DNA from: Nannocystales bacterium
GTDB lineage: Bacteria > Myxococcota_A > Polyangia > Nannocystales > Nannocystaceae
DNA: 64,000 nucleotides
Reading direction: 5' to 3'
NCBI GenBank assembly: GCA_050633305.1
Contig: JBOEGF010000013.1
Coordinates: 32,001 to 96,000, forward strand
The translations under genes and the position numbers were made by a program. Within the stretch, counting starts at the first letter, position 1; every line of letters begins with the position of its first letter. This document shows, one piece after another, positions 1,780-24,980 of this stretch. The notes below the pieces were generated by a model that saw only the letters and a program-made list of their open reading frames with translations, did no database searches and was not told the DNA's origin.

Positions 1780-2661
1780 TCAGTTCATTGGGACGAGCCA
1801 GCCCTCGAGACCGTCGAGGATCCACGCCGCGCTCACGACTCGCCCGTTGGAATACGTAGCGACGACCTCGCCGCGAGGGGAGAGAGTCAACTCGCGTAGA
1901 ACGCCGGGCTCGCGTCCATCGCTCGAAACGCCTCGTACGGAGGATGCGCCGGCAACCGAAGTGGTGCGCGCAGGGTCGAATTCGAGGTGCCATACCGCTT
2001 CGTTGTCCTCTGCCCAAGGTGCGATGAGCGGCTCGCCTTCCACCTGTGCCAGCTCGCCGTCGGCTCCGAAGTCCAATGTCACGACACCGAGCAGCTCGTC
2101 CTGACCTTCAACTCCCCGCTCGGCCATGGGATAAACCTTCCACTTGTCGGGGGTCTGGGCGAAGAAGACCTGCACCTCGACACTGACTCCCATCTCGTCG
2201 TAGATGGAGATCGAGGTTTGGTAGTCCGATGTAAACACCGGGTCGAGGGGGTCGAACGGAAGCCGCGGGACCGTTCGATCGAGATTGACCGCAAGTTCGA
2301 CTGTCTGCGTCGCGACGCCGGGAATCGCCAACGGGACCGACACCGGGCTGAGCGTCGGAACTTCGACGCTTACGCCAAGAACTGACCGGTCGTCTTCGTC
2401 AACAAGCGCTCCCTGCTCATCGACGCGAAGGTGGAGTTCGTTCTCGTCGAGGACCCGCCCTTCATCGGAGACCTGTACCGTTCCAGCGCCACACACGAAT
2501 ACGGAGATGTCCCCGTTCCCCAGCTCAAACGGGTTCTCAGCGACGCCTGCGCCCTCGCAGGCCCGAGGTGCGAGGCCCTCGTTTTCGTCCTGTGAAGCCC
2601 CGCATCCGGACGCTACGAGGGTGGTGAACACAGCGGCAAGAAGATGACGGTCGACGCGCAT
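1780..2661 (-). CDS. Lipoprotein with flagellar hook FlgE-like (D1/D2, FlaE-type) domain
   Basis: ATG at 2661 (MRVDRHLLAAVFTTLVASGC, lipobox); FlgE-like motifs ATQTVELAVNLD, FDPLDP..TSDYQTSISIYDEMG, LDFGADGEL, SDGREPGVL, GEVVATYSNG. Confidence 0.75.
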   Translation of the reverse strand: MRVDRHLLAAVFTTLVASGCGASQDENEGLAPRACEGAGVAENPFELGNGDISVFVCGAGTVQVSDEGRVLDENELHLRVDEQGALVDEDDRSVLGVSVEVPTLSPVSVPLAIPGVATQTVELAVNLDRTVPRLPFDPLDPVFTSDYQTSISIYDEMGVSVEVQVFFAQTPDKWKVYPMAERGVEGQDELLGVVTLDFGADGELAQVEGEPLIAPWAEDNEAVWHLEFDPARTTSVAGASSVRGVSSDGREPGVLRELTLSPRGEVVATYSNGRVVSAAWILDGLEGWLVPMN

Positions 2662-2674
2662 GACCCAGACAAGG

Positions 2675-2690
2675 AGCACATTCCGTGCCA
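2675..2690 (-). promoter_or_regulatory. sigma54 -24/-12 promoter
   Basis: Minus strand TGGCACGGAATGTGCT (GG-N10-GC), 13 nt upstream of ATG at 2661. Confidence 0.65.
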
Positions 2691-6404: not shown

Positions 6405-6420
6405 TGGCACGCCCGTTGCT
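6405..6420 (+). promoter_or_regulatory. sigma54 -24/-12 promoter
   Basis: TGGCACGCCCGTTGCT matches consensus TGGCAC-N5-TTGC; 12 nt upstream of ATG at 6433. Confidence 0.75.
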
Positions 6421-24840: not shown

Positions 24841-24980
24841 CCCGCGCTCAGCCAACCGCCAGTCGGTCTCGGGGTGTACGATCCACACCACACGTGTGCA
24901 TTTCACAGCACGCCTTGGCTGCCCAGAAGGCCCCTAGAACCCCGAAACGGACTGGCACCCCCGTTGCAACACCGGGACGC

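Follow-up and report, generated by a model that had tools for sequence, protein, structure and literature searches.

A predicted lipoprotein built from the D1 and D2 domains of the flagellar hook protein FlgE in a flagellated member of the Nannocystaceae

The hook-like locus

Near the beginning of the window, by which we mean the whole 64-kb stretch of DNA analysed here, the reverse strand carries a gene for a 293-residue protein (P0001), whose features in window coordinates are as follows.

1780..2661 (-): P0001 reading frame, 293 residues from the ATG at 2661; predicted lipoprotein, FlgE D1-D2 without D0
2602..2661 (-): signal peptide (residues 1-19) and lipobox Cys20 (2602-2604), followed by +2 Gly and +7 Glu
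2491..2559 (-): Cys35 and Cys57, common to full-length family members (alignment)
2317..2547 (-): N-terminal half of FlgE D1, about residues 39-115 (alignment and model)
1915..2286 (-): FlgE D2, residues 126-249 (PF07559, E 4.2e-13)
1783..1914 (-): C-terminal half of D1, shortened and closing with the family motif W-I-L-D-G-L (alignment)
2675..2690 (-): sigma54-type -24/-12 element, GG-N10-GC, 13 nt upstream of the ATG

The initial annotation had described a hook protein fragment with a lipobox at 1780..2690. While the reading frame itself extends only to 2661 on the reverse strand, the outer limit of 2690 does take in the promoter element at 2675-2690, and the quoted lipobox and FlgE-like motifs were all found in the P0001 translation. 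Located 52 nt downstream on the same strand is a gene (165-1727) for a 520-residue Ser/Thr-rich protein with a lipoprotein-like start and without a Pfam match; the two genes may share a transcript, and this second gene does not lie beside the hook-like orthologues in other genomes.

Domain architecture of P0001

Scanned against Pfam, P0001 matched FlgE_D2 as its sole family (residues 126-249, 50.4 bits against a cut-off of 22.7). The FlgE models of NCBIfam cover residues 52-275, with all scores far below the whole-protein cut-offs, and FlgE chains in the PDB also match by sequence (best E 3.6e-7). Domain D1, which is split around D2, is present according to both the alignment and the predicted fold, with PF22692 itself giving no match. 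As for D0, neither PF00460 (N-terminal, with the NIAN motif) nor PF06429 (C-terminal) matched P0001 in Pfam, and D0 profiles that we built from the FlgEs of relatives gave no match either. Here, the alignment places a signal peptide and a short linker where FlgE has its N-terminal D0/Dc segment, and at the opposite end the chain stops soon after the YSNG strand, short of the final strands of D1 and of the C-terminal D0 helix.

An AlphaFold2 model of the mature chain, for which the input was a 34-sequence alignment that included FlgEs, has a pLDDT of 92. Its best fold match is the crystallised FlgE31 core of Salmonella FlgE (PDB ID: 1wlg), with a Z-score of 17.2 and a rmsd of 3.0 Å for 235 residues, and with residues 32-273 aligned to 71-358. 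In both Foldseek and a second structural alignment, only hook and rod proteins match the model well, and unrelated folds have Z-scores of 4.1 or less. The homology to FlgE is thus borne out by Pfam and by the hook structures, and the description as a D1/D2 module without D0 on a lipoprotein signal was confirmed by Pfam, the alignment, and a lipobox rule.

As both D0 tests fail, P0001 is outside the FlgE family, but it is made of the outer domains of FlgE. It is predicted to be non-polymerising, since the termini of axial flagellar proteins form an inner coiled-coil tube, according to the accessible text of PMC6681337. Cys35 and Cys57 lie where the Dc/D0 link of FlgE would start, and may possibly be joined in a disulfide.

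Relative to FlgE (PF00460, PF22692, PF07559, and PF06429; TIGR03506 / PRK05682), with which it has the sequence and predicted fold of D1 and D2 in common, P0001 lacks D0 and Dc on both sides, begins with a lipoprotein-type signal, and has a shortened D1. Moreover, its gene is solitary and away from the flagellar cluster, whereas canonical flgE follows flgD within that cluster. FlgE31 covers almost the same span as the P0001 model, though it was made in the laboratory as a fragment, whereas P0001 is encoded in nature with a signal peptide and a promoter of its own; FlgE31 is not known to polymerise. Helicobacter pylori FlgE2 (PDB ID: 5npy; fold match Z 13.5) is likewise a FlgE-like protein that accompanies the structural hook protein. 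It is, however, larger, belongs to the flagellar gene set, and is not known to have a lipobox.

Export signal and membrane sorting

The N-terminus of P0001 consists of a basic stretch and a hydrophobic core that lead to the lipobox Cys20, and it passes a PROSITE-style lipobox rule, as do only 5 of 10,000 shuffled sequences. Among eight full-length family members tested, seven pass the same rule, the exception showing LLGC in that position, while a lipobox is found in none of 53 canonical FlgEs. With signal peptidase II genes also present in the host genome, Sec export and lipidation of P0001 are predicted. The sorting rule for Myxococcus xanthus, as given in the accessible text of PMC3222651, works through the +2 and +7 residues, with a +7 alanine sending lipoproteins outside; by this rule, +2 Gly and +7 Glu would predict an outer-membrane location for P0001. 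The +7 alanine is present in none of the eight family members.

Sigma54-type promoter element

Upstream of P0001 lies TGGCACG-N4-GTGCT, which has one mismatch to the sigma54 consensus TGGCACG-N4-TTGCW (taken from the accessible text of PMC2725144). Three such matches were observed in the window against 0.71 expected, and 4 of 100 shuffles also reached three, so that these statistics by themselves point only weakly to a sigma54 element. The element gains weight from its retention 12-14 nt upstream of the ATG in all four orthologues examined, with the same G replacing T, in neighbourhoods that are otherwise unrelated. In fact, the four loci have nothing else in common except one unrelated gene pair, and the candidate of a conserved gene neighbourhood was dropped. 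The earlier claim that the gene is sigma54-driven is supported in the sense of a conserved, predicted promoter, from which the transcript would be nearly leaderless.

In the host genome as a whole, 25 of 128 relaxed sigma54 matches are followed 9-17 nt on by an ATG-started reading frame, as compared with 177 of 4,000 random positions. By this enrichment, short-leader promoters of the sigma54 type look common in the host rather than specific to the flagellum, and near-leaderless sigma54 transcripts are suggested genome-wide. Many of these motifs precede signal-peptide genes. Two further elements occur in the window, at 6405-6420 (+) and 24953-24968 (+), the former being a perfect consensus 12 nt upstream of a 147-residue reading frame with a lipoprotein-like start. 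Sigma54-type elements also stand upstream of flgB and fliM in the three genomes checked (G000, i.e., the host, G002, and G006), and the host has rpoN as well as a sigma54 activator gene inside its flagellar cluster. Sigma54 control common to the hook-like gene and the flgB and fliM operons is hence predicted. In the similar genes of other lineages, no such element was found within 150 nt upstream (0 of 12); this, along with the many unrelated host genes that have one, we counted against the reading as a hook look-alike (see below).

The flagellum of the host

The initial annotation took the hook-like gene to be an orphan in a cell that does not swim. Its observation that the 64 kb hold no flagellar gene stands, beyond P0001 itself, for FlgE D2, flagellin N, Flg_bbr_C, and FlgI in genome-wide family searches. 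The inference drawn from it fails, because about 40 flagellar genes, among them an intact flgE, are clustered on another contig of the 11-Mb, 66% GC genome (C15, 198-237 kb, the hook-like gene being on C13). Here, 39 of the 44 reading frames scanned match flagellar-type families (flhB, flgH, and fliJ being named by position only), and the 427-residue FlgE has all four domains.

The cluster also has two motA/motB pairs and two flagellins. Directly after flgE is a gene with LysM and peptidase M74 domains (L013:1279-2277, on C15), as is likewise the case in G002, G006, and G014, and outside the cluster there is a solitary flagellin of 277 residues (L017:9930-10763, on C16). Flagellar genes are already known in Myxococcota, as the accessible texts describe for Anaeromyxobacter dehalogenans 2CP-C (PMC2330069) and for uncultured lineages (bioRxiv 10.1101/2021.07.06.451402); these accounts, to the extent accessible, mention no exported hook paralogues. 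In our phylum sample of 401 genomes, FlgI was found in 168 and a D2 match in 165.

Close relatives and co-occurrence with flgE

Orthologues of the hook-like gene are present in G002, G006, and G014. The closest named homologue and one of the orthologous loci carry the label Nannocystaceae. Counting database proteins as well, the family has nine full-length members (288-303 residues, without stops), of which the seven other aligned ones are 26-39% identical to P0001. The lipobox cysteine and two further cysteines are kept in all full-length aligned members, and the family forms a clade with full support in our trees. A pseudogene, or a chance chimera in which a piece of flgE became joined to a signal peptide, would suit the lower GC3 of the gene (0.71 against 0.87 for flgE). 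This reading is nevertheless barely credible given nine stop-free members with conserved cysteines and promoter and a crude dN/dS of 0.41-0.46 in D2 for three pairs, and a chance chimera is ruled out by the intact, conserved homologues. By its own terms, the initial annotation would have been refuted by the lack of an FlgE match or of intact homologues with the lipobox-FlgE build, and both were found. We regard the D1-D2 lipoprotein architecture and its conservation as secure, whereas the function is something we infer.

Of the 72 family genomes searched, 21 have a hook-type match and four have the lipoprotein, all four together with flgE; none has the lipoprotein without flgE, and it was not found in 17 of the 21 hook-positive genomes. 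As these genomes are kin and not independent observations, the co-occurrence may reflect few events. Neither flgI nor the lipoprotein was found in three genomes of the same genus (G003, G004, and G005, which are 84, 90, and 72% complete). In G001 (1,300 contigs, 77% complete), flgI and flagellins are present and neither flgE nor the lipoprotein was found, and this genome was counted neither way. G004 has one flagellin match, and flgE was not found in it.

Origin of the window's clade

Host-type FlgEs group apart from the other Nannocystaceae FlgEs in our trees, and either type fits equally well as donor of the lipoprotein clade, with p-AU values of 0.51 for the present host-type flgE and 0.48 for the other type. 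Free trees put the clade elsewhere, on a long branch. An advantage of +20.7 log-likelihood units over a quick free tree had at one stage pointed to a host-type donor, which was dropped once the direct comparison showed no preference. The profiles are similarly divided: the wider one gives 128 bits for the other Nannocystaceae FlgEs versus 117 for the host type, and the narrower one 110 bits for host-type FlgEs versus 90. A short loop of host-type FlgE is found in most lipoprotein members.

These results bear on whether the protein is a relic of an older, since deleted Nannocystaceae flagellum, with a role unrelated to the present one. The apartness of the host-type FlgEs, the AU value for the other donor, and the slight preference of the wider profile are in keeping with such a relic. 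However, the 17 family genomes in which the only hook genes are of the other FlgE type or fragments yielded no lipoprotein, nor did the non-flagellated genomes of the same genus, and both the narrower profile and the shared short loop lean towards host-type FlgEs, which altogether makes a relic highly unlikely. Of the ancestral-flagellum origin proposed by the initial annotation, an older donor is thus compatible with the AU test, though the present flgE fits just as well.

Resemblance of D2 to the cell's own hook

We compared 22 lipoprotein D2 copies (16 genes, 15 genomes) with 46 FlgE D2s, having dropped copies with fewer than 70 aligned residues. Among the 46, the cell's own FlgE ranks first for nine of the 22 copies and within the top three for 19, with ranks of 6th, 13th, and 32nd for the remaining three. 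A single clade of lipoprotein D2s was rejected (p-AU 1.2e-4, with a bootstrap that is not fully settled), and separate origins account for part of this matching.

The clearest case is a lipoprotein family (f72) with members in G420 and G342, which are 45% alike outside D2 and only 36% inside it. Outside D2, they are 28% alike to their own FlgEs, while D2 is 74% alike to the own FlgE in G420 and 58% in G342, where the lipoprotein D2 and the own FlgE share a loop deletion. The canonical FlgEs of the two genomes (L092 and L091) are themselves 70% alike outside D2 and 36% inside, a divergence to be expected of a surface under changing pressure, and one that suggests exchange of D2 between hook genes. 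For G420, G342, and G486, dS is 0.43-0.67 to the own flgE versus 0.70-0.86 between the lipoproteins, with synonymous sites near saturation in most pairs. The longest identical DNA runs to the own flgE are 27, 18, and 21 nt, respectively, against 23, 13, and 16 nt for the next best. Taken together, these values suggest that D2 was copied from the own flgE in these three genomes. For families other than f72, the matching could stem from copies that arose separately from an ancestor at the genus level, and not from upkeep.

The window copy tracks its own hook weakly. At 40% identity to this D2, the own FlgE takes rank 3, level with two unrelated FlgEs (40-41%); in a second alignment, the value is 33% against 30-34% for other host-type FlgEs. 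One D2 stretch of 15 residues matches the own FlgE at 14 positions, and an identical run of 19 nt is found with the own flgE, the other 45 flgE genes giving at most 13 nt. Recent gene conversion in the window gene was considered and rejected, a single 19-nt run at a conserved motif being too little.

Such drift raises the alternative of a general surface protein: the fold would have been taken up a single time, as a stable beta scaffold or adhesin, and the window clade would now have a non-flagellar target, its co-occurrence with flagella being inherited history. In keeping with this are the invariant Trp174, Pro215, Gly284, and other residues specific to the clade, the shortened D1 and long stem branch, the location of the gene among many signal-peptide genes with sigma54-type elements, and the want of a clear match between the window copy and its own hook. 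Nonetheless, searches of the three flgI-less genomes of the genus (72-90% complete) and of the hook-negative family genomes did not turn up the protein, and the 14/15-residue match and 19-nt run are with its own flgE; we therefore consider this alternative rather unlikely.

A wider class of exported hook proteins without D0

A profile search of 1.84 billion representatives returned 1,712 matches, and the best 150 were classified: 53 have both D0 ends, nine have one, and 88 have neither, counts that are no measure of frequency since the query profile favours D0-less lipoproteins. A lipobox occurs in 51 of these 88, and another 14 begin with a hydrophobic stretch, versus none of the 53 D0-complete proteins among the same best 150. 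None of 71 D0-less proteins scanned matched a D0 Pfam family. Many keep the whole of D1 and D2 and end where D0 would begin. In others, D2 occurs two or three times, an Ig domain of the FlgD type is present, or thrombospondin-type repeats are joined by a Cys-helix-Arg tail. One protein is named from a Bacteriovoracaceae genome.

The 15 genomes identified as having a D0-less lipoprotein gene each also have a canonical flgE, a co-occurrence that is partly built in, as most came from genomes with at least two D2 matches. The independent part of the evidence is that the 233 FlgI-negative genomes of the 401 contain a D2 match in only three, each with a canonical FlgE. Counts for the class are low, because the Pfam search missed two known members. 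The second D2 matches in G153 and G272 do not match the lipoprotein profile, and the two in G147 belong to one long FlgE.

Several builds of the class are worth recording. In L112 (G590), L115 (G620), and P0124, tandem FlgE D2 domains and an Ig domain of the FlgD type are combined in one lipoprotein, and in P0025, P0107, and P0030, D2 repeats are combined with thrombospondin-type and acidic disulfide repeats. The C-termini of P0025 and P0107, with a cysteine, a hydrophobic helix, and an arginine cluster, resemble MYXO-CTERM by eye, and no MYXO-CTERM model matched these tails at E 0.01. MYXO-CTERM is described as a surface-sorting tag in the accessible text of PMC11980579. Among 22 D0-less exported proteins of 320-400 residues, 12 (P0033, P0045, P0064, and others) have a cysteine in the last 16 residues, and many proteins of this size have one after the lipobox; disulfides may staple both ends of these proteins in place of D0. 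Two canonical-type flgE copies are found in each of G094, G573, and G631.

Carriage by phages was not evident: no phage match was obtained with P0058 as query and none in viral contigs with A1. A search of plasmids and secondary replicons gave seven weak matches (one annotated as flgE and six unannotated), scans of metagenome contigs gave none, and the ESM Atlas returned FlgE clusters only. We found no description of a lipid-anchored hook protein without D0 in the literature that we searched, from which subscription journals were mostly absent.

Possible function

We tentatively favour, at somewhat under an even chance, the reading that P0001 imitates the cell's own hook at the outer membrane without polymerising, and that it probably serves as a decoy against a hook-binding phage or predator. 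A second copy of flgE would have kept D1 and D2, lost both D0 ends, and gained a lipoprotein-type signal; Sec export would lead to lipid anchoring in the outer membrane, leaving the protein unable to build a hook, and the anchored D1-D2 would mimic the surface of the own hook and draw the hook-binding phage or predator. The surface exposure of P0001, any binding partner, its decoy role, and a continued job for the drifted window copy are all points that we infer. D2 forms the outer surface layer of the hook, with D2-D2 and D2-D1 contacts (accessible text of PMC6874566), and phage chi binds polyhooks (accessible text of PMC10399903).

What is found, in a patchy distribution and built more than once, is an anchored copy of the hook domain that is the most exposed and the most variable, and a decoy accounts for this best. 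The restriction to genomes with flgE, within those searched, and the D2 matching in relatives were counted for a look-alike of the own hook, as were the tandem D2s, the FlgD Ig domain, and the MYXO-CTERM-like tail. By the same D2 resemblance, the interactor with prey flagella that the initial annotation had considered is disfavoured. Counted against a look-alike were the weak tracking by the window D2 and the ranks of 6, 13, and 32. Outer-membrane lipoproteins face the periplasm by default, and this orientation, together with the missing +7 alanine, was counted against the decoy at the surface. We know of no phage or predator that binds the hooks of these bacteria.

Alternatively, the anchored D1-D2 may dock homotypically on FlgE through the contacts that hook subunits make with each other, either at the base of the own hook, as a collar, brake, or sheath tether, or on the hooks of kin, as an adhesin for self-recognition. 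Docking needs a cognate D2 and explains the D2 matching as well as a decoy does, the D2-D2 and D2/triangular-loop contacts are documented in the accessible text of PMC6874566, and the promoter class is that of flgB and fliM. Moreover, the thrombospondin-type repeats of three relatives resemble those in MtsC, a cohesion protein. We still think docking doubtful: the protein was not found in 17 of the 21 hook-positive family genomes and so is no core assembly part, most D2 contacts would already be occupied in a finished hook (to judge from the same accessible text), the gene is unlinked to the flagellar cluster in the four genomes compared, and the window D2 has drifted.

For the class as a whole, it is possible, and proposed here with caution, that flagellated Myxococcota, and at least one member of the Bacteriovoracaceae, repeatedly made tethered copies of their hook whose D2 is refreshed by conversion from flgE, which would amount to a self-updating decoy or a device for self-recognition.

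Significance

Databases label several of these proteins as 'flagellar hook protein FlgE', which is a warning for annotation. Axial flagellar proteins are usually regarded as cargo of type III export that functions solely in polymeric form, and recurring hook cores that stop at the borders of D0 and appear to be Sec-exported and anchored, some matched to the hook of their host, would imply selection for displaying a copy of the own hook. The natural pairs of matched and mismatched lipoprotein and hook offer material for tests, and the class points to an unknown hook-binding agent, or to recognition between hooks, in environmental myxobacteria.
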